Source of the DNA: Bacteroidales bacterium
GTDB lineage: Bacteria > Bacteroidota > Bacteroidia > Bacteroidales > UBA12077
NCBI GenBank assembly: GCA_013138975.1
Contig: WTBR01000043.1
Location: forward strand, 28,941-92,940
DNA length: 64,000 nt
Direction of reading: 5' to 3'
Every line of letters starts with the position of its first letter. Position 1 is the first letter of the stretch. The notes beneath the pieces were generated by a model. The model worked only from the letters and a program-made list of their open reading frames with translations, was not told where the DNA came from and did no database searches. Below are positions 1,049 to 63,940 of the stretch, in pieces. The position numbers and the translations under genes are program-made.

Positions 1049-4000
1049 ATGCAAATTCTCGATAAAAAAAATATTGAAGATATAATTGAACTTTCTCCAT
1101 TACAAGAAGGGATGTTTTTTCATTATTTAAACGATGAGAGCTTCGCTCAATATCATGAACAGCTTTGCATTGAGATGACAGGATGCCTTAAGTTAGACTT
1201 GGTTCAACAAGCCTGGCAGATGGTTGTGGATACAAATCAATTGTTGAGGGTACTATTTAGATGGGAAAAAATTAAAACTCCCATTCAAATTGTTTTGAAA
1301 AACCACACCGCAGATTTTGCATACTATAATTTAAAGAATAACAACAGTGAAATAAAGAGTATCAATGAACTTTTAGAACAAGATCTTAAATTAAAATTTG
1401 ACCTTTCAAAAGTGCCATTTCGAGTAAAATTGGTTGAAACTGATGAGAATAAAAGCTTTCTAATTGTTAGTAATCATCATATTTTATATGATGGCTGGAG
1501 CACAGGCATTATTCTAAATGATTTTTTCACTAACTATAATGGATTAATACAAGATCCTAATCTTAAGCCTTTAGTGAAGCCGGAGAATGTTTTTAGGAAA
1601 TATGTGGCGCATTTAAAGAAGTCAAAAAACATTAAAGCATTAGATTATTGGAAAAAGGAATTTGAAGGAATCAAATCAAATACTGATTTGCAATTCGAAA
1701 ATACTGATAATCAAACACCTCCTGATTATGAACTTGTAGATTCTTTGTTAAGTGAAGACTTAAACGAAAAACTAAATTCATTTACCGCTAATCATCGATT
1801 AACATTGTCTCAATATTTTTATTGTGCCTGGGCTATTTTGTTATATAAGTATAATTATAATGGCAAAAATATTGTTTTTGGGACAACAGTATCAGATCGT
1901 TCATTAAATATTTTAGGTATCCAGGAGTCAGTCGGATTATATATTAATACAGTACCTTGTATTGCGAAAATTAAACCTGAGAATACGATAATTCAAACCT
2001 TAATTGAATTAAAGTCGTTCCTCGATAAAAGAACAGATTTTGAATCTGTTCCCTTATCCGATATTATTACAAACTGTTGCAACATTAATAGGGAAATTTT
2101 CAACTCCATTCTTGTCGTAGAGAATTACCCGATTAGTTCAAAAAAATACTCCAATTCTGATTTAGAGATTAATTCAATTACCGATCATGGAGTTACGAAT
2201 TATGATATTACAGTAAGGATTAAAACGCATAAGGAACTTAAAGTGGAGATTAGTTATAATAAATCTAACTATTCTTCTTATTACGTAAATCAATTGTTAA
2301 ATCAATATGTAAACATTTTACAATTATTATATAAATCATCGGATATTTCAATTGGGAATTTTGATTTTTTGACTCATGAAGAAAAAGAACGATTACTTTA
2401 TTCATGGAATAATACAGAATCTGATGTAAACAAAGAAAAAAATATTGTAGAGCTGTTCGAAAATGTTGCTCGAAAGAATAATGAAAAAGTTTTATGTGTA
2501 AGTGAAGATAGAATCTTTACATATGGATATATCTCTAAAAGAGTAAATGCACTTGCTAGCCAATTATTATCAAAAGGAGCAGTAAAGGAAAATATTGTTG
2601 GAGTAATCGTTTCGCGAAACGAATTATTGATTATTTCAATACTCGGGATATTAAAAGCGGGATGTGCTTATTTGCCAATCGATCCTGAATATCCAACAGA
2701 TAGGGTTTCCTATATGTTAGAAGATAGTGAAGTTGAAATAATTATTACAGATGACAAAAATCAAAATATTTTCGAAAATTCCGACTCTAATTATAAAATT
2801 CTGGATATTTCAGAACCATGCATAACAAATGAATACCTTGAAATAAATAAGGATATTGATCCAGGATCTTTAGCATATCTTATATATACATCAGGTTCTA
2901 CAGGTAAGCCAAAAGGGATTTTAATAGAACAAGCCAGCGTAATAAATTTTTGTCATGCAATAAAAAATCGTATTCCAATTGAACCAGAGCATGGAATGCT
3001 AATGTTAACAACAATTTCATTTGACATCTTCGTTCTTGAAATGTTTGTTCCATTGTTAATAGCTTCGAAAATAATTATTGCAAACGAGAAAGAGCAGAAG
3101 GATACACATTTACTAAGTAAACTGATGGCAAGAAGCGCAGTCGATTTAGTTCAAATGACTCCGTCAAGGTTGCAAATGATCTTAGAAGATGACGAACAAA
3201 AAGATTGTTTAAAGCCTGTCAAAATATTAATGATAGGAGGAGAATCGTTCCCCGAAAATGTATTAAAGTCCTTAAAAGAGAGTTACAAGAATAAAATTTA
3301 TAATATGTATGGGCCCACTGAAACAACAGTATGGTCTACAATAGGTGAATTAACAAATAATGAGGAAATTAATATTGGACAACCAATATTAAATACCCAG
3401 ACATATATATTGGATTCTTCGGGAAATTTAATGCCAAATGGGGCTTCGGGCGAATTGTGCATAGGCGGTGAAGGAGTTTTAAGAGCATATTGGAGAAATG
3501 AAAAATCGAACAAAGAGAAAATTATAGAAAATCCTTTTATATCAGGTCAAAAGATATTTAAAACCGGTGATATTGCACGATGGAATAAAAATGGGGAATT
3601 AGAATGTTTTGGAAGGATCGATGATCAAGTAAAAATAAGAGGATTTAGAATTGAGTTAGGTGAAATTGAAAATCAAGCTAATCAAATTCAAGGAATCATT
3701 AATGTTGCAGCTTCCGTATTTGAAATTAACCCGGGAAATAAGGCATTGTGTTTGTACTATGTTTCTGATATTGAAATCGATAGCGAATATCTTATAGAAG
3801 AATTATCGGGGAAAATACCTTATTATATGGTTCCTCAGCGTTATGTCCGCTTGAATTCCCTGCCACTTACCCTAAATGGGAAAATAAACAGGAGATTGTT
3901 ACCTAAACCAACTGTAAATTCTCAGAAGTCTTTAAGCATGCCTGTTACAAGTGAAGAAAAGGAGATGGTGAAGATTTGGAGTGATGTTTTAAGCGTTGAT

Positions 4001-5853: not shown

Positions 5854-7560
5854 ATGAATAAAAACATGGTATCCGAAAATACAAGAATTTTAATGATGCA
5901 ATTACCCTTTTGGGCACCTTTAATTCCGCCACAGGGTATCGCACGACTTAAAACCTATTTGAATATGAATGGGTATAATAATGTTGTGACAATAGATGCA
6001 AATGTTGAAACTCAGTTTAAAAATATATACGAAGATTATTTTAATCACGCAAAAGAATATATTCCGGATGAGTTACACGGGAATTTTTACGATAATGGAC
6101 ATGATGTTTTCCGACTTCATTTAATGGCTCACTTGAATTGTAAAGTTGAGAAGGATTATATTCATCTGGCAGGATTGTTATTTGATTCAATTTACTTATA
6201 TATTCCATCAAACCAGGAAATCATTAATCTTAATAAGATTATAGATTCTTTTTATACTAAATTGGAAACATATTTCTTGTCTTTGATGAAGGAATATGAT
6301 CCGGAAATAATAGGATTTTCACTTCACAGCGGTAATTTCCCTGCAACCATATTTTTAAGTGAACTGGTAAGAAAAATAAGGCCTGATACTAAAATTATTC
6401 TTGGAGGTAGCATGTTTGCAGGTGAACTCAGACAAGAAACTCCGGATTTTGAAATGTTCATTAAAAGAACCGGAAATCTATTTGATAAAATTTTTATAGG
6501 ATTAAGCGAACGTGCCTTATATAAATATTTGCGTGGAGAATTGCCTGAAGATAAAAAAGTAATTTGTCAAGAGGATTTGAACGAGAAAATAATGACCATA
6601 AATTCTTTTGTAAAACCGGATTTATCTGATTTTGATTTATCAAAATACTCAACAATTGCGAGTTATACCTCTTTAAGTTGTACAAATGAATGTAGCTTTT
6701 GTAACGAAAAATCATTTTGGGGTGAATATCAAAAGAGAGATTTATCATTGGCAGTGAATGAGATAGTGAAGTCTTATGAAGAATATAAACCCGGTTATTT
6801 TTTCATGTTAGATGTAATGTTAAATCATACAATAGATGATTTTTCGAAAGCCATAATTGAAACAAAATTGCCAATATACTATGATGGTTATTTAAGAGTA
6901 TCTGAAGATTCGTGCGACTATGAAAAATGCATGACATGGAGACAGGGAGGATTATATAGGGTAAGAATGGGCTTGGAGAGTGGATCGCAAAAATTGCTTG
7001 ATGATATGAAAAAAGGGATTACTGTAGAGCAATCAAAACAAACTTTACATAACCTTGCGAAAGTAGGTATCAAAACAACAGGTTATTTTGTAATTGGTCA
7101 TCCGGGAGAAACAGAAGAAGATTTTATTAAAACCCTTAATTTTATTGAAGAATCAAAAGATAATTTCTGGCAAATAGAACCACATGTGTTTAATTATATG
7201 CATACGGGACAAAATTCGGGTGACATCTGGTCTGAAAATAGAAGCCTTATTTATCCTGAAAAATATAATGAGCATCTTATTTGTACAAGATGGAAAATTG
7301 ATCTTGAGCCAAATAGAAACACGGTTTTTGAAAGGCTTTTAAGATTCGTTAAACATTGTGATAAGCTCGGTATCAAAAATCCGTATTATTCATATGAAAA
7401 ATATAATGCAGATCTCCGTTGGAAAAGATTGCATAAAAATGCAGTTCCTTCTACCTTGGAGCTTGATAGTCATAATTTTACTGATACAGTTCGTGGTATT
7501 GAGGATCGAATAGAAGCTGCAATTATCAAGGATGACTCAAATGGTGATTTTGCATTTTAA
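5854..7560 (+). CDS. B12-binding (class B) radical SAM enzyme
   Basis: The N-terminal Rossmann-like cobalamin-binding-type segment reads ILMMQLPFWAPLIPPQGIARLKTYL...EIIGFSLHS...KIILGGSMF. The CxxxCxxC radical SAM motif CTNECSFC lies at 6679-6702. It is a paralog of the 49333 gene and ends ...NGDFAF. Confidence 0.85.
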   Translation: MNKNMVSENTRILMMQLPFWAPLIPPQGIARLKTYLNMNGYNNVVTIDANVETQFKNIYEDYFNHAKEYIPDELHGNFYDNGHDVFRLHLMAHLNCKVEKDYIHLAGLLFDSIYLYIPSNQEIINLNKIIDSFYTKLETYFLSLMKEYDPEIIGFSLHSGNFPATIFLSELVRKIRPDTKIILGGSMFAGELRQETPDFEMFIKRTGNLFDKIFIGLSERALYKYLRGELPEDKKVICQEDLNEKIMTINSFVKPDLSDFDLSKYSTIASYTSLSCTNECSFCNEKSFWGEYQKRDLSLAVNEIVKSYEEYKPGYFFMLDVMLNHTIDDFSKAIIETKLPIYYDGYLRVSEDSCDYEKCMTWRQGGLYRVRMGLESGSQKLLDDMKKGITVEQSKQTLHNLAKVGIKTTGYFVIGHPGETEEDFIKTLNFIEESKDNFWQIEPHVFNYMHTGQNSGDIWSENRSLIYPEKYNEHLICTRWKIDLEPNRNTVFERLLRFVKHCDKLGIKNPYYSYEKYNADLRWKRLHKNAVPSTLELDSHNFTDTVRGIEDRIEAAIIKDDSNGDFAF

Positions 7561-7602: not shown

Positions 7603-8766
7603 ATGAAATATTTCTCTTTACCTGCTGATTTTAAAACTGAAACTATTGATAAATATGTTGAGCTAAACAACAAGTTTTCAGGATCGAAAGTTTCCGAAAC
7701 TTATGGGCAAATCACGGTAGGCGCATATACGGGGTCGGGTCGAAGTATTAAATTATTACCAAAAACCGATTTTGCTGATTTAGAGAAATATGTTAAATAT
7801 TCTCAGGATAGGGGGATTAAATTCAACTATACATTCAATACTGCTTGTATGGCTAATTCTGAATTTACTGAAAAAGGAATGGCAGAATTGAAGGATTTCT
7901 TTTATAAACTTGATAATATTAATATTAAATCACTAACAATAGCATTACCATCATTAATTGAATTAGTAAAGGAGATATTACCGGAAACTGAAATTAAAGT
8001 TTCAGCTATTTCTAATGTTATTTCACCTGATAATGCCCTGTTTTATAAGAAAATGGGAGCGAAAAGGTTAGTGCCAAATACTGATATTAACCGTAATTTT
8101 ACATTACTCGGAGCCATATCAAAATGTTTTGGAGATGGAGTAGAAATAATTGTAAACAGCGTTTGTTATAAGAATTGTCCTTATAAGATCTTCCATTATA
8201 ATCATGAATCACATTCTAATAATAATCAAGACGTTGACAATTATTATTTCCATAGGTGTACAATGCAAAAAACAATGGAACTTAAGAATATGGTTCGTTT
8301 AAATTGGATTAGACCTGAAGATTTAAATTTATATGAAGATATTGGAATTCATCATTTTAAGCTCCAAGGCAGGAATAATGTGTATAATGGCGATCCTGCA
8401 AAATCTATCGAAGCATACTTTAAAGAAGAATACGAAGGCAACTTATATGACTTATTAACACTTTTTTCCCCAATCAATTCATATCATCCTTTTATCGACA
8501 ATAAGAAATTGGATGGTTACATAGAACGATTTAAAAAAGATCCTGAATTCTGTAAAAACATTTGTAGTGAATGTAATTATTGCGATCGTTTTGCTCAAAA
8601 ATCGATGGATAAAAATCATATGGACGAGTTGAATAGTTCTACTTATCAATTATATAATGGGATTGACGGGTATAATAAACTTGTTAAACAAGAAAAAGAA
8701 AAAAACGAGAAAAAAACGATTGAAGCTACATTTTCACCTGATGATAAAGAAGATTTTAATTTTTAA
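7603..8766 (+). CDS. U32-family (peptidase U32 / UbiU-UbiV-like) protein
   Basis: The layout resembles U32 proteins by eye: a TIM-barrel-like N-half (IKVSAISNVISPDNALFYKKMGAKRLV), a Cys-containing strand VEIIVNSVCYKNCPY, and HHFKLQGRNN (compare the conserved KIEGR of U32). There is an extra C-terminal Cys cluster, CKNICSECNYC. It ends ...KEDFNF. The family assignment has not been checked by HMM. Confidence 0.55.
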   Translation: MKYFSLPADFKTETIDKYVELNNKFSGSKVSETYGQITVGAYTGSGRSIKLLPKTDFADLEKYVKYSQDRGIKFNYTFNTACMANSEFTEKGMAELKDFFYKLDNINIKSLTIALPSLIELVKEILPETEIKVSAISNVISPDNALFYKKMGAKRLVPNTDINRNFTLLGAISKCFGDGVEIIVNSVCYKNCPYKIFHYNHESHSNNNQDVDNYYFHRCTMQKTMELKNMVRLNWIRPEDLNLYEDIGIHHFKLQGRNNVYNGDPAKSIEAYFKEEYEGNLYDLLTLFSPINSYHPFIDNKKLDGYIERFKKDPEFCKNICSECNYCDRFAQKSMDKNHMDELNSSTYQLYNGIDGYNKLVKQEKEKNEKKTIEATFSPDDKEDFNF

Positions 8767-8953: not shown

Positions 8954-10789
8954 ATGACTCATAGAAATAAATTTATCGTAAAATTAATTCACTGTGGAAA
9001 TAATAACCCTGTGAATCTTAATGATAAAGCACAAAAGAATATGTTTTTTATGCCCATGGGTTTACTCATGTTGGCAGAGGCTTTGAATAAGGAAAATTAC
9101 GATGTAGAGGTAATTCATTCAGATATTGAAACTGATTCACTGGACGATATTTTGGACTTTAACAATATCAATGCCATTGGGTTTGATTGTCATTGGATAA
9201 ACCAAAGTTTGGCTATTCTGGAAACAGCAAAATACATTAAAGAAAAGAATAGTTCAATTTTTATTTTCCTGGGTGGATTTTCTGCAAGCTTATTTTATTC
9301 TGAGTTATTAACAGAATACGACTATTTCGATGCAATAATTAAAGGAGATGGAGAGAAACCATTACTGGAATTATGTAAAGTATTAAGTGAAAATCTAAAG
9401 GAGGAACAGACTGAAGTAAACCTTGATTTAAAGAGCGTTTCTAATTTAGTATGGAGAGAAAACGGTAATGTTATCGATAATAAAACGGATTATATTGCTT
9501 CATCTCAGGATGTAGAAGATTATACTTTTGCAAAATTTGATTTACTAAAAAATTGGGAGTTCTATAGAGATTTATCGAATTACTATTCGCATTTCAAACC
9601 AATTAGTGAACACCCAATGTATTTACTGGAAATAGGCAGGGGATGTGAAAATTCATGTGCGTATTGCGGTGGAAATAGTGTAGCTCAAGAAAAGATAAAT
9701 AATAGAAGTAATGTATTCTTTAGAAGTATATCTTCAGTAATTGAATCAATTAAAGAATCTTATTCTTATGGATTTCGAGTTTATTATTTTAGTTTAGAGT
9801 GTAAAGAAAGCGATGAATATTATCAACTTTTGTTTCAGGAAATTAAGAAGCTTGATTTACCCATATATGTGGTGTATGGTGCATGGAGATTGCCTTCAGC
9901 TAATATAATTGATCAAATTTCAGCTTGTTGCGAACAATCGGTTCTTGAGATTTCTCCTGAAACTTCAAATGAGTTACTAAGGAAAAAAAATAAAGACAAT
10001 AAGATTTATTTCTCAAACACCCAGCTTGAAGAGTGTTTATCACATATTAAAAGCAAGCAAAATATTAAAGCGCAAATATTTTTTGGATACTATCTCTCAG
10101 GGGATTCTAAAGAAACAATTTTATCTACGATAGAGTATATTTTACATTTATTGGCAAGTTATAATGGAATGGTAGAAATTGAGTACTCTAATTTCTCTAC
10201 CGACCCGGGTTCTTTATATTTCTTTAAACCAGAAAGTTATGATATAAATATTAGTACGAGAAATTTCGATGATTATATCACGAATCTTAAAAGAATGTAT
10301 GTGGATAATAGCGATAATCCGGCTGATATGACCTTGTTTCGTCCAAATACAATTTCGGAAGAGGAATCTCAAAAGATATTCTTACTAATGAGAATATTTA
10401 ATTATATATTCATCACATATCGAAACACGATCACCTTGTATTTTGAGGAAACAGGAGAAATAAACTTTTTATTAAACTTGATAAATAAATTCGATACAAA
10501 AAATCTACTGAATTATGACTCAAAATTAATACAGGACATTTTTGATGAATTATTTTCCATATTTAAACCCACTGGTGAAGAAATACGAATTGTATTTCTA
10601 AGCGAATTTGAAAAATCACACAACAGTCATACTATCTCAAGACCTACCACACAACTATTTATGGATAGTGAATTGGCACATCAGTTTTTGGAACGTTGCG
10701 ATAGATCGATTTTAACAAAATACCAACTTAATATTGAAGGGCAATTAGCCGAACAAAAAGAGAAGGATCAAGGAGATTTTAATTTTTAG
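8954..10789 (+). CDS. B12-binding (class B) radical SAM enzyme
   Basis: The N-terminal B12-binding-like segment reads FFMPMGLLMLAEALNKENYDVEVIHSD...AIGFDCHW...IFLGGFSAS...AIIKGDGEKPLLEL. The CxxxCxxC motif CENSCAYC lies at 9644-9667. It ends ...QGDFNF. Confidence 0.85.
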   Translation: MTHRNKFIVKLIHCGNNNPVNLNDKAQKNMFFMPMGLLMLAEALNKENYDVEVIHSDIETDSLDDILDFNNINAIGFDCHWINQSLAILETAKYIKEKNSSIFIFLGGFSASLFYSELLTEYDYFDAIIKGDGEKPLLELCKVLSENLKEEQTEVNLDLKSVSNLVWRENGNVIDNKTDYIASSQDVEDYTFAKFDLLKNWEFYRDLSNYYSHFKPISEHPMYLLEIGRGCENSCAYCGGNSVAQEKINNRSNVFFRSISSVIESIKESYSYGFRVYYFSLECKESDEYYQLLFQEIKKLDLPIYVVYGAWRLPSANIIDQISACCEQSVLEISPETSNELLRKKNKDNKIYFSNTQLEECLSHIKSKQNIKAQIFFGYYLSGDSKETILSTIEYILHLLASYNGMVEIEYSNFSTDPGSLYFFKPESYDINISTRNFDDYITNLKRMYVDNSDNPADMTLFRPNTISEEESQKIFLLMRIFNYIFITYRNTITLYFEETGEINFLLNLINKFDTKNLLNYDSKLIQDIFDELFSIFKPTGEEIRIVFLSEFEKSHNSHTISRPTTQLFMDSELAHQFLERCDRSILTKYQLNIEGQLAEQKEKDQGDFNF

Positions 10790-48218: not shown

Positions 48219-48248
48219 GGTAAATATGCAAGACCTGTTAGTTTTTTT

Positions 48249-48297: not shown

Positions 48298-48335
48298 ATT
48301 TTGTTAGAGCAAATAATGAAAAATGAAACCAAATA

Positions 48336-51189: not shown

Positions 51190-54100
51190 ATGCAAGAGAG
51201 TATTTCGTCAGATAAAACAATCATATCATATCAGCAAAAAAATGAAAGAGATTTTTGGTTGGATAAATTGGCTGATTATGAAACAAAAAAGGGTATAGGC
51301 TTAAGGCTCGATGTTATAACTGAGAATGTAGTAGGGCAAGATTCAGTAAAATTATTATTTGATTCAGAAGCAAGCAGTAAAATAAATGGCTTGGTAAGTA
51401 ATTCAAGTCATAAGCTACACATATTTTTAACAGCCGTATTAACAGAGTTATTGCATCGATATACAGGCGACGAAGATATTATTATAGGTACACCTATTTA
51501 CAAACAGGATCAGGAGGGAGATTACATAAACACGGTGCTGGCCTTGCGGGCAAAAATAGAAAAAGGACTATGTTTTAAAGATCTTTTACTGAAAGTAGTA
51601 AGACCTACTGTTGTAGAAGCTGTAAAACATCAGAATTACCCATTTGAGAGTTTACTCCATCAATTAGATTTAGGAGCATTAGATGGAATTAATCCTTTGT
51701 TTGATGTAGCCATATTATTAGATAATATTCAAGAAAAAAGCTATTTAGATCATGTTCCCGTTCGATTGTTATTTAAATTCAATAATAGTTCAGAGGGTCA
51801 GGTATCCTGCGAATTAGAATATGACACATCCGTAATAAGTAAATCTTTTGCAAGCAATTTATTGGTTCATTATGAGTTTTTAGCAAAACAATTCATAGGC
51901 AATTTAACAGTACCTATGGATGATCTGGCAATGCTTTTACCCGCAGAACGAAAGCAGATCTTAGAAGATTTTAATTCAACAGAACATACTTATCCATCAG
52001 AAGAATCAGTTGATGAATTATTTAGAGAAACAGCTACATTATATAAAGACAAAATAGCACTAAAATATAATGGACATCATTTAACTTACGGAGAATTAGA
52101 TCAAGAATCAAGCAAGTTAAGTAGCTATCTACAAAAACAAGGAGTAGAAAAGGGAGAACCTGTAGGGATCATGATTGGTCATAGTGTAGAGATGATCGTA
52201 GGTTTATTGGGAATCTTAAAATCAGGAGCAATTTATTGTCCAATTAATATTGATTATCCCGAAGAGCGCAAACGAAGTCTTCTAGCAGATAGCGATATAC
52301 GCTTTTTACTATGCAATGATTTAGAATATAAGAATGATGCTGTAACGAAGATTGATTTGACATCAATAGAGTTTAATCAGGAAGAATTAGCTGAGGTATC
52401 AACGCATACAGGTCAGGATGCCTGTTATATAATGTACACTTCAGGATCAACCGGTCAACCAAAAGGAGTTATCATAAATCATCAAAATGTAGTTCGATTA
52501 GTAAAGAATACGAATTTTGTAAATTTTAATTCCGATTACCGCATATTACAAACAGGTGCATTAGAGTTTGACGCTTCAACATTCGAACTATGGGGATCTT
52601 TATTAAATGGAGGTACCTTATACCTGGAAGATAAGTACACAATCATAAACAATAAAAAACTAAAAAGCACACTAGAGAAAAATTCAATAAACACCATCTG
52701 GATGACTGCCCCCTTATTTAACCAGATGTTAGATACAGACATATCCATTTTTAAGAACCTCGATCATTTACTGGTTGGAGGAGATGTATTATCAACAAAA
52801 CATATTAATAAATTACGTGAATCATATCCCGGAATAAAAGTAACAAATGGTTATGGGCCTACAGAAAACACGACATTTTCAACAACACATGAAATTACTA
52901 AACAGTATAAAGGGAATAACATTCCGATAGGAAAACCCATAAATAATTCCACAGCTTATATATTAGATCATAAAGAAAATATTTTACCACCGGAAGTTCC
53001 GGGAGAATTATATGTAGGAGGAGACGGAGTAGGTTTAGGATATCTGAATAATCCCGAATACACACACGAAAAATTTATAGAACTTCCGGATTTTACGGGA
53101 CAAAGATTCTATAAAACAGGAGATAAGGCCTTATGGCTTTCCAATGGAGACATCTCGTTTGTAGGAAGAATAGACAATCAGGTAAAAATTCGAGGTTACC
53201 GAATAGAACCGGGAGAAGTTGAGAGTGTAATCACTTCCGATAATGAAGTAAAAGAATCGATAGTAATAGTTAAGGAAAGTGATGATGGAGAAAAATATTT
53301 ATGTGCTTATTTGGTAGGAGAAAGTGATCTAATAATTTCAGACCTGAAAATTCGCTTGCAAAATAAGTTACCGGACTATATGCTACCTACTTATATAGTA
53401 AAACTTGATAAATTTCCATTAACCACCAATGGAAAGATTGATAAGAAATTATTGCCGGAACCTGAAATAGAATTAGGAAAAGAACTTATTGCCCCAAGAA
53501 ACCGAATTGAAAAAGAACTATTAGAAATTTGGTCGGAATTATTGAGCCTTGAAAAAGAACATATAGGGATTGACTCCAACTTTTTTGAATTGGGAGGACA
53601 TTCACTGAAAGCTACTTTATTAACATCACAAATACACAAAGCCTTAAATGTAGATGTATCCCTTTCAGAGGTATTTAAGAATCAAACAATTCGGGAACTA
53701 TCTTTAGTATTGGAGTCATCAGCAGAAGGATTTTACAAATCCATAAGTCGAGCACCTGAACAAGCATATTATGATCTATCCTCAGCCCAAAAGCGACTTT
53801 ACGTTTTGGAACAAATGGAAAGCCTTTCTACAAGCTATAATGTGCCAATGGCCTTTACCTTGGAAGGGAAAGTTAACGTAGAAAAGATAGAGCATGCATT
53901 GCAGCAACTGGTTCAACGACATGTAAGTTTACGAACATCCTTTACCTTGGTAGATCAAGTTCCCAAACAAAAAATTGAAGAACATGTAGAATTGCCAATT
54001 CGCTTTTACGATGAGTCTGATGTAAATGCAGAAGAATTGATAAAGGATTTTGTGCAAGCATTTGATTTAAGCAAGGCTCCTTTAATGCGTGTAGGTCTGG

Positions 54101-57100
54101 CAAAACTGGGTGAGGAGAAATACTTGTTTTTGATCGATATGCATCATATCATTACCGATGGTACTTCGGTGGCAATCACCTTGAAAGAATTTATGCAGCT
54201 TTATTCCGGTTTAGAATTAAAAACCAAACCAATACAGTATACTGATTTTTCAGAATGGCAAAATAAGCTATTAAAATTAGAGGAAATAAATAAGCAAAAG
54301 CATTTTTGGGAGAAGGAATTTGAGGAAGAAATCTCAGTATTAGAGCTACCAAATGATTATTCTCGTCCAATAGTTCAAAGCTACGAAGGAGATAGCCATA
54401 ATTTTGAACTCGACACTGAAATAACCGAGAAACTACAGCAAATATGCGCACAAGAAGGCAAAACCATGTTTATGCTTTTACTTGCAGCATATAATGTATT
54501 ATTATCAAAACTTAGTAATCAGGATGATATTGTTGTAGGATCACCAATTGCAGGAAGACGTCATGCCGATTTAGAGAACACAGTAGGGATGTTTATAAAT
54601 ACACTGGTATTAAGAAACTTTCCTTCCGGAGATAAAACATTTAAAAGTTTCTTAAATGAAGTAGGCGAAAAAACCTTAAATGTATTTGAAAATCAAGAGT
54701 ATCAGTTTGAAGATTTGGTTGGGCAATTAGCCTTGAGTAAAGATACCAGCCGTAATCCAATTTTTGATGTGGCATTTTCTTTTCATAATGAATCTGCGCC
54801 GGGGCGAATTGAACACATAAAAACTCCCGGATTAACATTACGACCGTACAATACGAATAATACTACAATAAAATTTGATCTGACTTTAAGCGCAACAAGC
54901 AAAAAAGATAAATTATTATTAAGTTTTCAGTATTGTACAAAGTTATTTAAAAAGGAAACAATAGAACGTTTTACGGAATCTTACATAAATATTCTGGAAG
55001 CAATAAGTACAGATATTAACCAGTCTCTATTTAAAATAGATATTATCTCCGATAAGGAAAAACAGTGGATATTAGAACAGCAAAACAATACATCGGTACA
55101 ATATCCTGAAAACAAATTATTACATACACTATTTGAAGAACAGGTAGAAAAAAGGGAACATAAGGTAGCGGTAAAATTTGGCGATGAGCATATTACTTAT
55201 CGCGAACTGAATAATAGGGCGAATCACTTAGGACATACGCTTCGAAAAAGGGGAATAGAACCGGGTAGTATTGTTGGACTCATACAAGACAAGTCAATTG
55301 AAATGTTGATATCTATTCTCGGTGTTTTAAAAGCAGGAGCTGGTTATTTACCAATAAATCCATCGTATCCTCAAGAGAGAATCGAATTTTTAATAAATGA
55401 TTCAAATGCAGCTATAGTTGTTGTATCAGAAACCACAAAACAAAAGTACACTGAAAAGCAGATTAATATATCAGATTTAAGCGATGAAGAAGTAAGTATA
55501 TCAAACTTAAAAACAGATCAATCTCCAGAAAGTTTAGCGTATATCATATATACTTCGGGTACTACAGGTAAACCTAAAGGAGTAATGATAAATCATAAAA
55601 ATGTAGTTCGTTTATTATTTAACGATTCGGAACTCTTTGATTTTAATGACCAAGATGTTTGGAGTATGTTTCATGCCTATAATTTTGATTTTTCGGTATG
55701 GGAAATATATGGAGCATTACTTAAGGGCGGAGAGTTAGTTGTTTTTAACGATTCGGAGGTTAAGGATGCAAGCGTAGTTACAGAAAAAATAATCAAAGAA
55801 AACATTACAGTTCTAAATCAAACACCAGCTTCGTTTTATAATTTACAGTATAGCAACGATAATATATTAAGTAAAAAGCTTCAATTACGTTATGTTATTT
55901 TTGGAGGTGATGCATTAATTTCTTCTAAGCTAAAAGAATGGAAAGAATATTTTCCGGGGATAAAATTTGTAAATATGTATGGCATAACAGAAACAACAGT
56001 TCATGTCACATATAAGGAAATAGGCGATGAAGAGATAAAGGGAAATAAAAGTAATATAGGTAAATCAATACCAACTTTATCTACATATATTTTAGACGAA
56101 AGGCAAGGAGTATTGCCCATAGGAGTTGGAGGTGAAATATGTATTAGTGGTGCCGGAACGAGTGTTGGATATTTGAATAATCCGGAATTAACAAACGAAA
56201 AATTTATACCCAATCCATATCAACAAGGAGAGCGCCTTTATAAATCGGGAGATAAGGGAAGGATACTGAAAAATGGAGACATAGAGTATTTAGGTCGTAT
56301 CGATCAACAGGTTAAAATTAGAGGATACAGAATAGAATTAGGAGAAATAAATTCTTATTTATCAGGCTATGATCAAATAAAAAAGTCTGTTGTAGGTGTA
56401 ATTCCAATGAACGAAGAAAAAGCCTTGGTGGCTTACTTTATATCATCCGGGAAAATAGCATCCGACCAGCTAAAAAAATATCTATTAGGAAGTCTTCCTG
56501 AATATATGATTCCGACTTATTTTATTCAAGTAGAAAATATTCCTTTAACAAGCAATGGTAAAGTGGATTGGAAATCTTTACCCGAACCCGATATTAAGAT
56601 AAAAGAACAATATGAAGAAGCTACAAGTACAGCAGAATTAAAGATTTTGGAGATTTGGGCTAATGTTTTAAATATTGATAGTTCTGCAATTAGTGTAAGC
56701 GAAAGTTTCTTTAAAATTGGAGGTAACTCGCTAAATGCTAATCAGGTAGTTTTAAAGATTCATCAAAGTTTAAATGTAAAATTACCTTTAACAGATTTGT
56801 TTCGATTCCAAACCATAAGGGAGCTGGCACAAAGATTAAATCAGTATAAAACCGAAGATTTTATATTGATGAAAAATACAGAAAAGAAAGAATACTACAA
56901 TATTTCACCGGCACAAAGAAGATTATACCTTCTTCAGCAAATGGCTGCAAATAATATTACGTATAATTTACCGCAGTTAATAAAATTAAATTTTGAACTT
57001 GATGTTAAAAAAGTTGAGGAAGTATTTATAAAACTAATTAATAGACATGAATGTTTTAGAACTTCATTTCATGTAATTAATGGAAAAATTGTTCAGCGAA

Positions 57101-58221
57101 TTAACGAAGAATCTAAAATTGAAATTGATTTTTATGATATTAAATCGACAAATAAGGAAGCAATAATTTCAAACTTTATTAAACCTTTTGATATTTCTAA
57201 ATCACCCTTAATAAGACTTAGCATAATCAAAGAAAATACGAATAGTTATATACTTTTGATTGATATGCATCATATAATTTCCGATGAAGTATCTCAGGAA
57301 TTATTAATGAAAGAATTTAACTTATTGTACAATAACGAATCGCTGAGTAAGCAAAAATTACAATACAAAGATTTTGCAGAATGGTTTTGTTCTGAAAATA
57401 GCGTGAATATATTGGAAAGTGAAGAGAAATTTTGGTTGGATATGTACAAGGATAATATTCCAATACTTAATTTGCCAATAGATAATTTAAGAGATAAGGA
57501 TGTGTTTTCATCAGGGGATAAAAAGAATTATTTTATCGATGATCAACTTGCTGCGAAAATAAAAGACTTAGCAATAAAAAAAGAGTGTTCAATAAATAAT
57601 TTACTTTTTAGTATTTATTTTATTCTTCTCGCAAAATTATCTGGTCAAGATGATCTTGTTATAGGAACAGTTGCCTCCGGTCGAAAACATGTAGATTTAA
57701 TAAACATAATTGGCTTTTTTGTAAATATGCTGGCGATAAGAAATAAACCTGCCGGTAATAGAAAATTCAGTGTGTTTTTAAACGAAGTGACTAATAATTA
57801 TTATTCGGCTATTGATAATCAGAATTACCAATTTGATGAATTAATCGATAAACTTAAAATCACCAGAACCGAAAATCGTAATCCTTTGGTTGATGCCGTT
57901 TATGTTTTTAAAGACAGTTCGGATGTTTTTATAGAAAGCAAAGAAACGTTAAATGAAGATAAATTAGACTTTAACATATCGCATTTTGATATTATGTTTT
58001 ATTTAACTGAATATAAGAATAGTATGCGTATTTCAGTTGAGTATAGCACAAAATTATTCTCCGAAAAGACAATTGATAATATGGCAAGTTCTTATATAAA
58101 ACTATTAGAACAGATTGTTGAAAATGAGGACATTACTATTGATGAATTACAGATTGTTGATGATTTTAAATCAACAACTACTGATATAGAATCACTTAAT
58201 CAAATTGAATTCGAATTATAA
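51190..58221 (+). CDS. bimodular NRPS, half-C-A-T-C-A-T-C (Val-like and Thr-like codes)
   Basis: The N-terminal region is C-lobe-only (RDFWLDKL...). Module 1: A1 has [61 protein letters not shown]. T1 is FFELGGHS. The first C domain has [16 protein letters not shown] and HHIITDGTS. Module 2: A2 has [59 protein letters not shown]. T2 is KIGGNS. The final C domain has [15 protein letters not shown] and HHIISDE at 57268-57288. It ends ...QIEFEL. Confidence 0.9.
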   Translation: [2343 protein letters not shown]

Positions 58222-58234: not shown

Positions 58235-61200
58235 ATGAAGAATAGAACATTATCGCAAGTATCATTATCATCATCAAAATATACTAAAGAAAAGGACTTT
58301 TGGTTAAAATTCTTTTCTGGTGTAAAAAGTAAAAACGCTATTGTAGGATTAATTGATACTAACAACAATAATACTGAAAGTGTATTCGAAAAAATACAAA
58401 TCTCTTTTGAATCCAATCTTTGTAATGGAATAAATAAGATATGTAAAAACTCGGATAATACTTTACACATATTTTTAACAGCCGTATTAACAGAATTATT
58501 GCATCGATATACTGGCGATGAAGATATTATTATAGGTACACCAATTTACAGGCAGGATCAGGAGGGAGACTATATAAATACAGTACTTGCAATACGATCG
58601 AAGATAGAAAAAGGGCAAAGCTTTAAAGATCTTTTACTGAAGGTAGTAAGACCTAATGTTATAGAATGTATCAAACATCAGAATTACCCATTTGAGAGTT
58701 TACTCCATCAATTAAATTTAGGAGCATTAGATGGAATTAATCCCTTATTTGATGTAGCCATATTATTAGATAATATACAAGAAAAGAGCTATTTAGATCA
58801 TATTCCTAAGCGATTGTTATTTAAATTCAATCATAGTTCAGAGGGGCAAGTGTCCTGTGAATTAGAATATGACGCATCGGTAATAAGTAAATCTTCGGCA
58901 AGCAATTTATTGCTTCATTATGAGTTTTTAGCAAAACAATTAATAAGCAATATAGCAGTACCCATGGATGATCTGGCGATGCTTTTACCCGCAGAACAAA
59001 AGCAGGTTATAGAAGATTTTAATTCAACAGAAAATACTTATCCATCGGAAGAATCCGTTGACAGTTTATTTAGAGAAACAGCTGCATTAAATAAAGACAA
59101 AGTAGCACTAAAATATAATGGACATCATATAACTTACCGAGAATTAGATCAACGTTCAAGCCAGTTAAGTAGCTATTTGCAAAAACAAGGAGTAGAAAAG
59201 GGAGAACCTGTAGGGATCATGATTGGTCATAGCGTAGAGATGATTGTTGGTTTATTAGGAATCTTAAAATCAGGAGGAATTTATTGTCCAATTAATATTG
59301 ATTACCCGGAAGAACGCAAACGAAGTCTTCTAGCAGATAGCAATATACGCTTTTTGCTATGCAAGGATTTAGAATTTAAGAATGATGCTGTAACGAAGAT
59401 TGATTTGACATTAATAGAGTTGAATCAGGAAGAATTTGCAGAGGTATCAAAGCATACAGGTCAGGATGCTTGCTATATTATGTATACTTCAGGATCAACA
59501 GGACAACCAAAAGGAGTTATCATAAATCATCAAAATGTAGTTCGATTAGTAAAGAATACGAATTTTGTAAATTTTAATTCCGATTACCGCATATTACAAA
59601 CAGGTGCATTGGAGTTTGATGCTTCAACATTCGAACTTTGGGGATCCTTATTAAATGGAGGTACCTTATACCTGGAAGATAAGTACACAATCATAAACGA
59701 TCAAAAACTAAAAAGTACACTAGAGAAAAATTCAATAAACACCATCTGGATGACTTCCCCATTATTTAACCAGATGTTAGATACAGACATTTCCATTTTT
59801 AAGAACCTCGATCATTTATTAGTTGGAGGAGATGTATTATCAACTAAACATATTAACAAGTTACGTGAATCTTATCCCGGAATAAAAGTAACAAATGGTT
59901 ATGGACCTACAGAAAACACGACATTTTCAACAACACATGAAATTACAAAACAGTATAATGGAAATAACATTCCAATTGGAAAACCCATAAATAATTCCAC
60001 AGCTTATATAATAGATCATAAGGAACATATTTTACCACCTGAAGTTCCGGGAGAGTTGTATGTAGGTGGCGATGGAGTAGGATTAGGATATTTGAATAAT
60101 CCTGAATACACACACGAAAAATTTATAGAACTGCAAGATCTTCCGGGACAAAGATTTTATAAAACAGGAGATAAGGCCTTATGGCTTTCCGATGGAGAAA
60201 TCTCGTTTTTAGGAAGGATCGACTATCAGGTAAAAATTCGCGGTTACCGCATAGAACCGGGAGAAGTTGAAAGTGTAATCACTTCCGATAATGAAGTAAA
60301 AGAATCATTAGTAATAGTTAAGGAGAATAACGAAGGAGAAAAATATTTATGTGCCTACCTGGTAGGAGAAAGTGACCTGGAAATTTCAGACCTGAAAATT
60401 CGCTTGAAAGATAGCTTACCGGACTATATGCTACCTACTTATATAGTTAAGCTTGATAAATTTCCATTAACCACCAATGGAAAGATAGATAGAAAATTAT
60501 TGCCAGAACCTGAAATAGACTTTGGAAAAGAACTTATTGCCCCAAGAAACCCAACTGAAAAAAGACTATTAGAAATATGGTCAGAATTATTAGGTATTGA
60601 AAAAGAAAATATCGGAATAGATTCAAATTTTTTTGAATTAGGAGGACACTCATTGAAAGCAACATTACTGACCTCCCAAATATATAAGATATTAAATGTT
60701 GAGTTGCCACTTTCGGAGATATTTAAAAATCAAACAATCCGAGAACTGTCTTTAGTATTGGAATCATCAGCAGAAGGATTGTATAAATCAATAAGTCAAG
60801 CCCCGGTTCAGTCATATTATGCACTTTCATCAGCTCAAATGCGGCTTTATATTTTGGATCAAATGGATATGACTTCCACAAGTTATAATATTCCCATGGC
60901 TTTTATATTAGAAGGCGACATCGATTTAAAAAAGCTGATAAACACATTACAAAAGCTGGTAAAAAGACATGCCGCTTTACGTACATCCTTTGTTCAGGTA
61001 GATCAAATTCCCAAACAAAGAATAGCGGAAGATGCAGAATTGCAGGTAAAATATTATTCAGAATCTACAGTCACACCAAGGGAATTATTTTCTGATTTTG
61101 TACAAGCCTTTGATTTGAGTCAGGCACCCTTAATGAGGGTAAGCCTTGTAAAACAGAATGAAGGGCAATATTTATTTATGATAGATATGCATCATATCAT

Positions 61201-63940
61201 TACCGATGGTACCTCTTTAGCTATTCTGGTGAGAGAATTTATGCAACTGTATTCCGGATTAGAATTAAAACCACTACCGATACAGTATAGCGATTTTTCG
61301 GAATGGCAAAATGAATTATTGAGTACAAAGCAAATAGATAAACAAAAAGACTTTTGGACAGAAGAATTCAAAGAAGAAATAAGCATCATGGAACTACCAT
61401 GTGATTATTCACGTCCACCGGTTCAAAGTTTTGAAGGAAGGAGTTTAAAATTTACAATAAGCCCGGAGTTAACATCCAAACTAAAAGATATTTGCTTAAG
61501 TGAAGATAAGACCATGTTTATGGTATTGCTATCCGCCTATAACGTATTGTTATCGAAGCTGAGCAATCAGAGTGATATAGTTATCGGAACACCCATTGCA
61601 GGAAGACGCCATCCGGATCTTGAGAATATAGTAGGGATGTTTATAAATACATTAGTATTAAGAAATTTCCCGGCAGGAGATAAAACACTGAAAAATTTCT
61701 TAGAAGAAGTTAAAGAGAAAACAATTAAAGTGTATGATAATCAAGATTATCAGTTTGAGGATTTAGTACGCCAATTATCCTTAACTAATGATACAAGTCG
61801 TAATCCAATATTTGATGTAGCCTTTTCATTTCATAATGAATCAGCGCCCGGAAATATTGATTCAATAAGTATTCCGGGATTAAGTTTACAAGCATATAAT
61901 CCTACAATAACAACCACTAAGTTTGATTTAACCTTAAGCAGCTCAGAGGTAAGAGATCAATTGCAATTTAGTTTTCAGTATTGCACCAAACTCTTTAAAA
62001 AAGAAACAATAGAACGTTTTAAGGATTATTTTGTAAAGATATTAGAATCCATAAGTACAGATCTGCATCAAAAGATATCCCAAATTGAAATAATCTCGGA
62101 TCAAGAAAGAGATTGGATAATAGCTCAACAAGATCAAACTTCAGTAAGTTATCCTACAAACAAACTATTACATAGAATATTTGAAGAACAAGTAGAAAAG
62201 CAAGGAGACAAAATAGCGGCAAAGTTTGGAGATCAACAGATAAGTTATCGAGAGCTTAATAATAAGGCAAATCAATTAGGTCATGCACTTCAGCAGGATG
62301 GAATAGGTTTAAATAGCATAGTTGGATTGATTCAGGATAAGTCAATTGAAATGTTGATATCTATTTTAGGGGTATTAAAAGCAGGAGGAAGTTACTTGCC
62401 AATTAATCCAACATATCCACAGGAACGGATAGAGTTTTTAATAAATGATTCAAATGCAGATTTGGTAATTGTATCAAATGAAACATCAGGCGAAACTATA
62501 AAACCACAAATTAATGTTAACAGCTTGTTTGGTACAGATTTAAGTACATCTAATTTAGTATTGGAACAAACCTCGGAAAGTGCTGCATATATAATCTATA
62601 CCTCGGGAACAACAGGAAAACCCAAGGGAGTTATAATAAATCACGAAAATGTAGTACGTCTATTATTTAACGAATCAAATTTATTTGACTTTAATGATCA
62701 AGACGTATGGAGTATGTTCCATGCTTATAATTTTGATTTTTCTGTATGGGAGTTTTACGGATCTTTATTAAAAGGTGGAGAATTAATTGTATTGTCAGAT
62801 ACAGAAGTAAAAGATGCCAATCTGATAAGCGAAAAAATCCTTAAAGAAAATATTACAGTTTTTAATCAAACACCCGCATCCTTTTATAATTTAAAGAATA
62901 GCAATGAAAGTTTACTAAACAAGAATCTACAATTACGATATGTTATTTTTGGAGGAGATGCTTTAGCACCGGCCAAACTCAAGATATGGAAAGATCATTT
63001 CCCTGAAATAAAATTCATAAACATGTACGGTATCACAGAAACTACGGTTCATGTTAGCTATAAAGAAATAAGCGATAATGAAATAGCAAGAGGTAAAAGT
63101 AATATAGGTAAATCAATACCGACCTTAGCAAGCTATATTCTGGATGAAAATCAAGAATTATTACCGCAAGGAGCAGGGGGCGAGATATGCGTAAGTGGAG
63201 CAGGAATTAGTATGGGGTATTTGAACAATCCGGAGTTAACACATGAAAAATTCATTATTAATCCATTTAAGCCGGGTGAATATATATACAGATCCGGAGA
63301 TAAAGGTAGAATATTACCAGATGGAGATATCGAATACCTGGGTAGAATAGATCAACAGGTAAAAATAAGAGGCTATAGAATAGAATTAGCTGAGATAGAA
63401 AAAGTTTTATTGAAACATGAAAATATTGAAAAATGTGTTGTAATAGTCAAAGAAGATTCAGAAGATAAACACCTGTGTTCCTATATCGTTTATGAAAAAG
63501 AGATTGAACAGGAAGAATTACGCACATACTTATCCAATCATTTACCGGATTATATGATTCCATCGTATTTTGTAAAGATGGATACACTGCCATTAACTGC
63601 TAATGGTAAAGTTAATCGTAAGGCCTTGCCTAATCCTGAAGTAAAAGCAGGAGACGATTATGTCGCCCCATCCAATGAATTGGAGAAAAAAATGGTAAGT
63701 ATCTGGTCGGAAGTATTGGATGTGCCAGAAGAAGAATTGAGTGTAATGGCAAACTTCTTTGCCCTAGGTGGTCATTCATTAAAGGCCATGGATGTAACTA
63801 ACAAAATACAAGAAATTTTCAATGTTGCAGTGCCACTTACGCAAGTTTTAAATTCACTCACAATCAGGTCGCTTGTATTATTAATATCAGTAAAAGTTGA
63901 TCAGGAAGAAAATCTTGAATATGAGGAAGTAGAATTTTAA
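58235..63940 (+). CDS. bimodular NRPS, half-C-A-T-C-A-T (Val-like and Thr-like codes), ends in carrier domain
   Basis: It has the same motif set as the 51190 gene, and the first module is nearly identical. The T2 motif is FFALGGHS. No C, TE or R domain follows. It ends ...LEYEEVEF. Its start is 13 nt after the preceding stop. Confidence 0.9.
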   Translation: MKNRTLSQVSLSSSKYTKEKDFWLKFFSGVKSKNAIVGLIDTNNNNTESVFEKIQISFESNLCNGINKICKNSDNTLHIFLTAVLTELLHRYTGDEDIIIGTPIYRQDQEGDYINTVLAIRSKIEKGQSFKDLLLKVVRPNVIECIKHQNYPFESLLHQLNLGALDGINPLFDVAILLDNIQEKSYLDHIPKRLLFKFNHSSEGQVSCELEYDASVISKSSASNLLLHYEFLAKQLISNIAVPMDDLAMLLPAEQKQVIEDFNSTENTYPSEESVDSLFRETAALNKDKVALKYNGHHITYRELDQRSSQLSSYLQKQGVEKGEPVGIMIGHSVEMIVGLLGILKSGGIYCPINIDYPEERKRSLLADSNIRFLLCKDLEFKNDAVTKIDLTLIELNQEEFAEVSKHTGQDACYIMYTSGSTGQPKGVIINHQNVVRLVKNTNFVNFNSDYRILQTGALEFDASTFELWGSLLNGGTLYLEDKYTIINDQKLKSTLEKNSINTIWMTSPLFNQMLDTDISIFKNLDHLLVGGDVLSTKHINKLRESYPGIKVTNGYGPTENTTFSTTHEITKQYNGNNIPIGKPINNSTAYIIDHKEHILPPEVPGELYVGGDGVGLGYLNNPEYTHEKFIELQDLPGQRFYKTGDKALWLSDGEISFLGRIDYQVKIRGYRIEPGEVESVITSDNEVKESLVIVKENNEGEKYLCAYLVGESDLEISDLKIRLKDSLPDYMLPTYIVKLDKFPLTTNGKIDRKLLPEPEIDFGKELIAPRNPTEKRLLEIWSELLGIEKENIGIDSNFFELGGHSLKATLLTSQIYKILNVELPLSEIFKNQTIRELSLVLESSAEGLYKSISQAPVQSYYALSSAQMRLYILDQMDMTSTSYNIPMAFILEGDIDLKKLINTLQKLVKRHAALRTSFVQVDQIPKQRIAEDAELQVKYYSESTVTPRELFSDFVQAFDLSQAPLMRVSLVKQNEGQYLFMIDMHHIITDGTSLAILVREFMQLYSGLELKPLPIQYSDFSEWQNELLSTKQIDKQKDFWTEEFKEEISIMELPCDYSRPPVQSFEGRSLKFTISPELTSKLKDICLSEDKTMFMVLLSAYNVLLSKLSNQSDIVIGTPIAGRRHPDLENIVGMFINTLVLRNFPAGDKTLKNFLEEVKEKTIKVYDNQDYQFEDLVRQLSLTNDTSRNPIFDVAFSFHNESAPGNIDSISIPGLSLQAYNPTITTTKFDLTLSSSEVRDQLQFSFQYCTKLFKKETIERFKDYFVKILESISTDLHQKISQIEIISDQERDWIIAQQDQTSVSYPTNKLLHRIFEEQVEKQGDKIAAKFGDQQISYRELNNKANQLGHALQQDGIGLNSIVGLIQDKSIEMLISILGVLKAGGSYLPINPTYPQERIEFLINDSNADLVIVSNETSGETIKPQINVNSLFGTDLSTSNLVLEQTSESAAYIIYTSGTTGKPKGVIINHENVVRLLFNESNLFDFNDQDVWSMFHAYNFDFSVWEFYGSLLKGGELIVLSDTEVKDANLISEKILKENITVFNQTPASFYNLKNSNESLLNKNLQLRYVIFGGDALAPAKLKIWKDHFPEIKFINMYGITETTVHVSYKEISDNEIARGKSNIGKSIPTLASYILDENQELLPQGAGGEICVSGAGISMGYLNNPELTHEKFIINPFKPGEYIYRSGDKGRILPDGDIEYLGRIDQQVKIRGYRIELAEIEKVLLKHENIEKCVVIVKEDSEDKHLCSYIVYEKEIEQEELRTYLSNHLPDYMIPSYFVKMDTLPLTANGKVNRKALPNPEVKAGDDYVAPSNELEKKMVSIWSEVLDVPEEELSVMANFFALGGHSLKAMDVTNKIQEIFNVAVPLTQVLNSLTIRSLVLLISVKVDQEENLEYEEVEF

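Follow-up and report, generated by a model that had tools for sequence, protein, structure and literature searches.

A stretch of 64,000 nucleotides from a Bacteroidales bacterium (contig WTBR01000043.1; analysed from position 1 to 64,000 and called the window below) appears, on balance, to hold most of a single hybrid nonribosomal peptide synthetase (NRPS)–polyketide synthase (PKS) line into which radical S-adenosylmethionine (rSAM) units with a B12-binding domain are wired, radical C-methylation being their likeliest chemistry. All four rSAM units found contain a CxxxCxxC motif. Three are the products of free-standing genes (g3, g5 and g18, starting at positions 5854, 8954 and 49333), and the fourth is embedded in an adenylation (A) domain of the megasynthase g13. 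An initial annotation of this DNA, made from its letters, had located all four, placing the embedded one at ~30540-32180; its ends were now mapped to 30546-32171. That annotation had counted eight megasynthase genes, all on the + strand. A domain map built from Pfam searches and from profiles of the window's own domains, with E-values far beyond chance for every domain call, retained the strand and raised the number to nine. It also bore out the reported content of 11 intact A domains, one module with a ketosynthase (KS) and an acyltransferase (AT), and one A domain interrupted by an AT, the last of these A domains being dead. The phosphopantetheine serine is kept in 13/13 carrier (T) domains of the window.

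The insert in g13 is 542 aa long and separates motif A2 from A3 in the first A domain of this protein. A2 (LKAGGTYLPIDPEYP) and the residues that follow it, ending in KYLLVD, precede the insert, after which the A domain resumes with AYIIYTSGTTGRPKGV just before A3 (YIIYTSGTTGRPKGV). Motif alignment showed A5, A7, A8 and A10 to be intact too, so the domain keeps its motifs on both sides of the split, as an interrupted A domain does. Its specificity code is DFWNIGMVHK, which we take to be the canonical Thr code. The CxxxCxxC motif lies at aa 65 of the insert, and the B12-binding domain at ~aa 404-541 (PF02310, 44.2 bits; Pfam cut-off, 32.1). The rSAM core is thus followed by the B12 domain, whereas class-B enzymes usually have the two the other way round, and NCBIfam profiles matched the insert in two pieces, the C-terminal part corresponding to profile positions 17-153 and the N-terminal part to positions ~152 onward. 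When aa 397-542 were placed before aa 1-396 and the search was repeated, single colinear matches were obtained to ApyD (22-389), BchE (21-361), BzaD (20-405) and KedN5 (17-359). Since these matches are single and colinear, the embedded unit is, as judged from its sequence, a clean circular permutant of a class-B rSAM enzyme. Both ends of the insert correspond to the point where the two domains join in the canonical order, and they should be close in space, as insertion into a loop requires; permutation would in this way let an rSAM unit fit the A2-A3 site. An AlphaFold2 model of the insert was compact (pLDDT 89.7, pTM 0.89), with a core resembling those of AprD4, MgmA, MiaB/RimO, TsrM, CysS and TokK. 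Over 29 homologs, no change is seen in the cluster cysteines C65, C69 and C72 or in two motifs of the B12 domain, GGP and GEGE; a fourth invariant Cys is lacking.

Interrupted A domains such as those of TioN, MarQ, KtzH and TioS (families 1-7, Lundy, Mori and Garneau-Tsodikova 2020) likewise carry an in-frame catalytic insert and intact A motifs, and the a2-a3 site used in g13 is that of side-chain methylase inserts, e.g. TioN and MarQ (PMC11355689). The inserts described so far, however, are class I S-adenosylmethionine (SAM) methyltransferase, Ox or KR domains, whereas that of g13 is a permuted rSAM/B12-domain protein of 542 aa. M, Ox and KR domains, located at a2-a3, a6-a7 and a8-a9, are the only inserts listed in two reviews on interrupted A domains, and the words radical, cobalamin and acyltransferase are absent from both (PMC8341866, PMC11355689). 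Literature searches returned no description of an rSAM-interrupted A domain (their coverage was partial, making this absence of evidence only), nothing specific on rSAM units in NRPSs, on Aminicenantes NRPSs or on U32 proteins in gene clusters, and neither a paper nor a characterised cluster showing this architecture; the initial annotation had called such a density of rSAM chemistry unusual for an NRPS cluster. The methyl-coenzyme M reductase arginine methylase Mmp10 shares the order of the embedded unit, its rSAM domain being N-terminal and its cobalamin-binding domain C-terminal (PMC8950095). Mmp10 was absent, however, from the family and structure matches of the embedded unit, which is a permutant of the ordinary class-B layout.

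More than 1371 homologs of the insert were found. Many are fused to AMP-binding or Condensation domains, and others are free-standing proteins of 540-580 aa; the nearest relative among the GTDB species representatives, which do not include the source genome, is 63% identical. When 80 loci from species-representative genomes were annotated with the profiles of the window's own domains, dozens displayed the layout A(1 to ~104)-rSAM-A(~120 to 477). The 36 complete modules of this kind, written A(rSAM) below, have an identical insertion site and come from at least 16 lineages, including Clostridia, Ca. Aminicenantes, Acidobacteriota, Ca. Omnitrophota, Ca. Deferrimicrobium, Bacteroidales, SAR324, Planctomycetales and Elusimicrobia. 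Most are uncultured; Lachnoclostridium phytofermentans KNHs2131 and Desulfosediminicola flagellatus IMCC35005 are cultured strains that have such a module. The 36 modules are diverse in specificity code (Thr, 8; Pro-like, 5-6; Ile-like, 4; with Glu/Gln, Asn, Leu and others making up the rest), and the chemistry must accordingly be aimed at a position that many amino acids share. The idea that the embedded or trans-acting rSAM units serve a single residue type was rejected on account of this diversity. Free-standing homologs of the insert, 41-47% identical to it, also occur in Pelagibacterales and other marine Proteobacteria (loci L043-L056). In these SAR11-type genomes the homologs have no NRPS nearby and lack the DDLENE tail described below, so the family must also have a role outside NRPSs.

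The class B assignment made in the initial annotation was upheld, matches to hidden Markov models, family relationships and fold all supporting the view that the four rSAM units are of the class-B (B12-domain) type. With PF04055, g3, g18 and the insert scored 60-69 bits; g5, at 28.0 bits, fell slightly short of the cut-off (29.5). PF02310 was above its cut-off in g5 (52.2 bits) and below it in g3 (30.5) and g18 (22.8). The B12 domain is N-terminal to the rSAM core in g3 (where the CxxxCxxC motif is at aa 276), g5 and g18, the reversed order being found in the embedded unit alone. The g3 and g18 proteins are paralogs (37% identity), to which g5 is related at superfamily level only. The PoyB/C-type model TIGR03975 aligned nearly end to end with g3 and g18 (aa 3-431 to model positions 1-428), scoring 69-83 bits against a cut-off of 282. 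PoyB/PoyC-type C-methyltransferases of RiPPs (peptides made by ribosomes and modified after translation) have the same domain order as g3 and g18 but act on a ribosomal precursor peptide, whereas the context of g3 and g18 is an NRPS. The family nearest to g5 is TIGR04190 (180 bits; cut-off, 500), and no match to g5 was found among solved structures. The g18 family has more than 1694 members, PF02310 being detected in ~110 of the best 120. A model of g18 (pLDDT 89.0) superposed over its full length on AprD4 (TM 0.70), TsrM (0.60), OxsB, CysS and TokK, with ~526 columns aligned in the case of CysS.

Gene g4, located between g3 and g5, encodes a protein of the U32 family (PF01136, 38.4 bits, covering profile positions 1-70 only), which also matched the TrhP model (E = 2.5e-4). 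Its seven cysteines (C188, C192 and C219, plus CX3CX2CX2C at 317-327) are kept in the homologs of two distant loci, including one from an Aminicenantes metagenome-assembled genome. UbiU/UbiV, TrhP and RlhA are U32 proteins that work as oxygen-independent Fe-S enzymes, and the analogy suggests that g4 is a redox enzyme of this kind rather than a protease. A U32 gene is paired with a g5-type rSAM gene in three distant loci, namely the window, L017 (U32 gene at 16333-17565) and L061 (18032-19201); the pair may perform other oxygen-independent redox chemistry.

Six subunits (g6, g7, g8, g13, g19 and g20) open with a half condensation (C) domain consisting of the C-lobe only. These half-C domains begin at the 'YW' helix and lack HHxxxDG, and the subunit preceding a half-C subunit ends with a full C domain. 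Their identity to the C-lobes of full C domains is 21-29%, and to one another 24-32%, except for the g19/g20 pair (69%); a recent duplication was rejected on these low values, and the half domains must be old. Many of the subunits that end with a C domain, and all of the putative trans enzymes (g3, g4, g5 and g18), have a short acidic-aromatic tail at the C-terminus (Table 1). In related loci from many phyla, the tail motif was present in 24/25 C-ending subunits encoded before a half-C gene or a trans-enzyme gene, in 0/5 encoded before a full-C gene, and in 6/16 in other contexts; its background rate is 9.5%, and its association with the type of the next gene is significant (Fisher p = 1.4e-6). 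In relatives, 12/12 g18-type rSAM genes that have an NRPS gene close downstream precede a half-C gene, a thirteenth having no NRPS gene there. Of 119 g18 homologs, nearly all have ..EDFDF or ..DDDWF as their last residues, and the tail is disordered in the g18 model. When 1.8 billion proteins were searched with a half-C profile, 43 of the top 150 were best matched at their extreme N-terminus, the ranking being dominated by giant multi-C NRPSs. A second class of tail (..DDLENE/..DDLEDE) was found on free-standing rSAM proteins of the embedded family in NRPS loci (L008, 9956-13347; L057) and on the C-ending subunits adjoining them, and the downstream subunits start with an A domain. The g13 protein, whose successor g14 has no half-C domain, ends in ..VEDLE.

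This pattern suggests that the acidic-aromatic tails are short docking motifs and the half-C domain their receptor, a (D/E)FxF tail docking on the half-C domain that opens the next subunit, and that trans enzymes share the address of the upstream subunit. The DDLENE-type tails look like a second docking class, for subunits starting with an A domain. Docking of the TubC type (beta-hairpin) and of the COM type likewise involves a short disordered C-terminal tail and an N-terminal domain of the next subunit, but the receptor proposed here is a half condensation domain and the tail is also borne by trans-acting tailoring enzymes. Nothing specific on docking by truncated C domains was found in the literature. 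The ACV synthetases are said (Iacovelli et al., in 2020) to have a truncated C-like domain, resembling a C-terminal lobe and without HHxxxDG, at the N-terminus, before the first A domain; here, in contrast, such domains occur on six subunits, are paired with a full C domain of the preceding subunit and are correlated with a tail motif. As a separate observation on the C domains, HHxxxD is followed by E, A or L, and not by the usual G, in the terminal C domain of g2, g6, g12, g13, g14 and g19, with g7 as an exception; among the four internal C domains aligned, HHxxxDG is kept in three (the third of g13 and the second of g19 and of g20).

Because C-ending subunits precede half-C starts, g13 precedes g14, and the T domain ending g8 can hand over to the KS of g12, one subunit order fits. 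It would run g2, g6, g7, g8, g12, g13, g14, g19, g20 and then a gene lying upstream of the window, making a line of ~14 modules. The g12 protein has the make-up of a PKS extension module, with a KS triad formed by C189 (QSACST), H324 (HGTGT) and H366 (NIGHL), an AT in which GYSIG replaces GHSxG, and a T domain with GGDSL. Pfam searches found neither a thioesterase (TE; PF00975) nor a reductase (R) family match in any window protein, and the epimerisation (E) domain motifs EGHGRE, TVGWFT and FNYLG are not present in the window. The final T domain of g20 occupies aa 1818-1880 of 1901. In these respects the initial annotation was right, having seen no E, TE or R domain and a last gene ending in a T domain. 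Its proposal that release lies beyond the right edge or is non-canonical stands less well, since a TE module ~8 kb upstream probably serves. The sequence upstream was taken from the Logan contig L001, which reaches 10 kb beyond g2 and holds, in this order, a gene for a TubC_N-C-A-T-Thioesterase protein of 1327 aa on the same strand as g2 and ~8 kb before it, two MacB/FtsX permease genes, a GT4 glycosyltransferase gene and g2. The thioesterase domain scored 46.8 bits with PF00975 (cut-off, 26.4) and has the active site GYSMG. The terminal T domain of g20 would dock on the TubC_N domain of this protein, whose thioesterase would release the product, and the missing release domain is probably an effect of the window edge.

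The rSAM units are envisaged as acting on amino acids while these are attached to T domains. Action on carrier-bound residues is supported by the position of one unit inside an A domain, and by the fact that the free-standing rSAM genes adjoin module starts and encode docking-like tails. These tails would deliver the trans enzymes, with g6 as the destination of g3, g4 and g5, and the Val module of g19 as that of g18. The chemistry proposed is cobalamin-dependent radical C-methylation of unactivated side-chain carbons, e.g. conversion of Val to tert-Leu, or methylation of Thr. Pantetheinyl substrates are used by CysS, ThnK and TokK (PMC8950095), and the B12-rSAM enzyme DscE C-methylates the NRPS peptide discodermin, with tert-Leu-type residues as a result (PMC12858407). 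CysS (cystobactamid) and DscE are thus also class-B rSAM enzymes that tailor NRPS products. Both are free-standing, however, and their sequence relation to the present units is remote; the present cluster has four units, of which one forms part of an A domain and the others, at subunit junctions, bear docking-like tails. A wider idea, put forward tentatively and as rather less than probable, is that the permuted rSAM-in-A unit, the tail-addressed trans rSAM and U32 enzymes and the half-C receptor together make up an undescribed style of NRPS in many uncultured, apparently mostly anaerobic bacteria; the permuted unit would then define a new family of interrupted A domains and carry out radical C-H functionalisation of the newly loaded amino acid.

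Several points weigh against a single line with methylating rSAM units. The PF02310 scores of g3 and g18 are sub-threshold, and no curated NCBIfam cut-off, those of the methylase families included, was reached by any of the four units. Among solved structures, AprD4 (6fd2) ranks first for the embedded unit in both sequence and fold, and for g18 in fold. AprD4 is a B12-independent diol dehydratase with a class-B fold, and neither cobalamin use nor methyl transfer therefore follows from the fold. The initial annotation had inferred radical C-methylations, or other radical chemistry, on carrier-bound residues; the carrier-bound part is the one that gained support, methylation not following from an AprD4-like fold. 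Docking between tail and half-C domain is proposed from co-occurrence only, would require four proteins (g2-g5) to share one receptor on g6, and has to accommodate the tails, 6/16 as given above, that occur before subunits in which no half-C domain was detected. With regard to release, the reading draws on the window (sequence ends at 64000) plus 10 kb upstream, and the transporter and glycosyltransferase genes separate the TE gene from g2, so that the TE may belong to a neighbouring cluster. Finally, the loading of g14 by an AT leaves the C domain upstream of it without an evident nucleophile, so that the line may break in two at this point.

Such a break would give one line running from g2 to g13, ended by the terminal C domain of g13, and a second, AT-loaded one running from g14 through g19 and g20 to a release module. 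The g14 protein has no half-C domain. In its A domain, an AT with a KS-AT linker is inserted between A4 and A5, and the domain is dead: A3 reads YYYLQSTKDGL-QAIAG and A7 FPTNNLG, A8 is degenerate, the Lys of A10 is replaced by Asp, and the code is EQFNLCLIID, Asp235 being lost. The inserted AT is 40% identical to that of g12 and carries GYSFG instead of GHSxG. The T domain of g14 would thus be loaded by the AT, with no amine nucleophile evident. The same insertion site is found in one ortholog, 90% identical to g14, and in a family of A(AT)-T-TE proteins with 38-42% identity, and the tail of g13 (..VEDLE) belongs to another class than those of the other C-ending subunits. All this is in keeping with two lines. 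Against them, the DLE-type tail recurs in relatives in which the next subunit opens with an A domain, which agrees with g13 handing over to g14 in the normal way, all of the genes form one block on one strand, and a single TE was seen in L001 plus the window. Two separate lines were therefore considered unlikely, and a single line is the reading retained.

It is about equally unlikely that the rSAM units perform radical chemistry other than methylation (dehydration, dehydrogenation, U32-aided hydroxylation, or C-C/C-S cross-linking), with the 'B12' domain in a structural role as in AprD4. Besides the AprD4 matches and the unreached methylase cut-offs, this possibility is favoured by the Thr-coded A domains, which offer a hydroxyl and host the window's embedded unit as well as 8/36 of those in relatives, by the recurrence of the g5-type rSAM/U32 pair in three distant loci, and by the C domain that follows the A(rSAM)-T module. 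This second C domain of g13, unlike all the other C domains of the window, belongs with the DCL/dehydrating McyA/AmbE clade (McyA, 142 bits; AmbE, 87; the LCL-type TycC, 30; its other solved relatives are BacC, McyB, TycB and SrfA-C), as do its two closest relatives (in L005 and L007), which also follow Thr-coded rSAM modules whose T domains are of the GGDSI type. To judge from these matches it may dehydrate a Thr, modified or not, or accept a D-configured donor, and stereochemistry or dehydration may thus be handled without a canonical E domain in the window. That a special C subtype follows rSAM modules as a general rule was rejected, however, 22/28 such domains falling in the main cluster and the odd type being confined to the Thr modules of the window, L005 and L007. 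Methylation is favoured, on the other side, by the invariance of GGP and GEGE in the B12 domain of the embedded family, by the Pro, Ile and Leu codes among the modules, which offer no hydroxyl, and by the match of g3 and g18 to the PoyB/C-type C-methylase model over its full length; the members of the class characterised so far are, moreover, mostly methylases (PMC8950095).

That the rSAM units are radical epimerases standing in for E domains and yielding D-residues is the least probable of the alternatives: the lack of an E domain in the window, the diverse codes of the modules served (as expected for chemistry at C-alpha) and the GGDSI motif of the first T domain of g13, a type of T domain followed by an E domain in 8/8 cases in relatives and here by a DCL-like C domain, are outweighed by the canonical E domain directly after A(rSAM)-T in L018, L019, L025 and L037, by the clustering of those 22/28 C domains with the ones found after ordinary modules (in the window, the typical C domain of this cluster is of the LCL type, 353 bits with TycC), and by the lack, in the 29 sequences, of a conserved extra Cys as H-atom donor. 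The radical peptide epimerases PoyD and YydG have no B12 domain, whereas that of the embedded unit is conserved, and a role for this unit as a substitute epimerase was rejected. Because relatives have A(rSAM)-T-E, ordinary C domains follow rSAM modules and the donor Cys is missing, side-chain chemistry, with methylation as its preferred form, is more likely than epimerisation for the embedded unit.

Radical C-methylation and kindred C-H chemistry at unactivated carbons is chemically hard, and in peptides it is known mainly from ribosomal products; for NRPSs there are two cases, CysS and DscE, both acting in trans. Placed inside an A domain, an rSAM unit would allow radical tailoring at a set position on the line, and NRPS engineers would have a part ready for use. 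How trans enzymes pick one module would be explained by a shared docking tail, which might also be transplanted to other systems; if the proposal is true, it amounts to a portable address code for placing radical chemistry at chosen peptide positions. What is added to the initial annotation is an interrupted A domain of a new and widespread kind, together with a candidate code for the docking of radical enzymes at single modules. With >1300 homologs of the embedded unit and >1600 of g18, almost all in uncultured lineages, the family hints at a large and still untapped pool of modified peptides.

The coordinates of all these features are collected in Table 1. The window has a GC content of ~31%, and each of its 20 open reading frames with 150 aa or more lies on the + strand. 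Its small proteins are identical to NCBI entries NOQ25388-NOQ25404 (locus tags GQ564_085xx), encoded on a 93,734-bp contig of a Bacteroidales metagenome-assembled genome, and fragments of it are also held by the Logan assembly SRR10375099.

Table 1. Genes and domains of the window, with the C-terminal tails of their products
Feature	Position	Strand	Description	C-terminal tail
MacB/FtsX-type ABC permease gene, 3' part	1..1021	+	PF02687, PF12704; export/self-resistance candidate	
g2	1049..5572	+	C-A-T-C; first C starter-like; A code DILQMGMVWK (Gly-like)	..DSDFRF
g3	5854..7560	+	free-standing class-B-type rSAM	..NGDFAF
g4	7603..8766	+	U32-family (PF01136)	..KEDFNF
g5	8954..10789	+	free-standing B12-domain rSAM, second type	..QGDFNF
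g6	11045..14986	+	halfC-A-T-C; A code DGSSVAEV-K	TFNV
g6 half-C	11045..11830	+	aa 1-262	
g7	15009..18899	+	halfC-A-T-C; Ser code DVWHFSLVDK	..SDDFQF
g7 half-C	15009..15746	+		
g8	18931..21444	+	halfC-A-T; Asn code DLTKIGEVGK; T at end	
g8 half-C	18931..19656	+		
Acyl carrier protein, free-standing	21766..22011	+	81 aa; PF00550, 30 bits; NCBIfam acyl carrier protein models	
g9	22020..22730	+	class I SAM methyltransferase; BioC/UbiG-like matches weak	
g10 + g11	23133..24359	+	two small proteins without family match	
g12	24549..28979	+	KS-AT-T-C	..EADFDF
g13	29415..41249	+	halfC-A(rSAM)-T-C-A(Leu)-T-C-A-T-C	..VEDLE
g13 half-C	29415..30191	+		
Embedded rSAM unit	30546..32171	+	g13 aa 378-919; PF04055 + PF02310	
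g13 first T (T1) + second C	33375..34982	+		
g13 second C	33678..34982	+	aa 1422-1856; DCL/dehydrating (CmodAA-like) clade	
g14	41453..45937	+	A(AT)-T-C	..EEDWDI
g14 AT + KS-AT linker	42128..43459	+	aa 226-669; between A4 and A5 of the dead A domain (41453..44287, g14 aa 1-945)	
g15-g17	46046..48941	+	three open reading frames without family match; GC 0.27, lowest in window	
g18	49333..51009	+	free-standing class-B-type rSAM, directly upstream of g19	..TEDFEFDL
g19	51190..58221	+	halfC-A(Val)-T-C-A(Thr)-T-C	..NQIEFEL
g19 half-C	51190..51978	+		
g20	58235..63940	+	halfC-A(Val)-T-C-A(Thr-like)-T; T at end	
g20 half-C	58235..59026	+		

As the initial annotation had noticed, a U32-family gene, a carrier protein gene and a methyltransferase gene are interleaved with the megasynthase genes; these are g4, the free-standing acyl carrier protein gene and g9. 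The permease gene cut by the window start encodes 797 aa in full, as seen in L001. Searches with Pfam and NCBIfam profiles assigned no family to g10, g11 or g15-g17, which have no counterpart in the 80 related loci either. Genes g15-g17 are possibly an unrelated insertion, given their low GC content and their absence from the related loci; two of the three products have N-terminal hydrophobic segments. The products of g10 and g11 each have a GHG ... C pattern (SGHGSKSG ... FFSCYGG and IGHGRAG ... IQGCDVAKG), which recalls the His-Cys dyads of the caspase fold (clan CD), and g11 gave a weak match to DUF4347.

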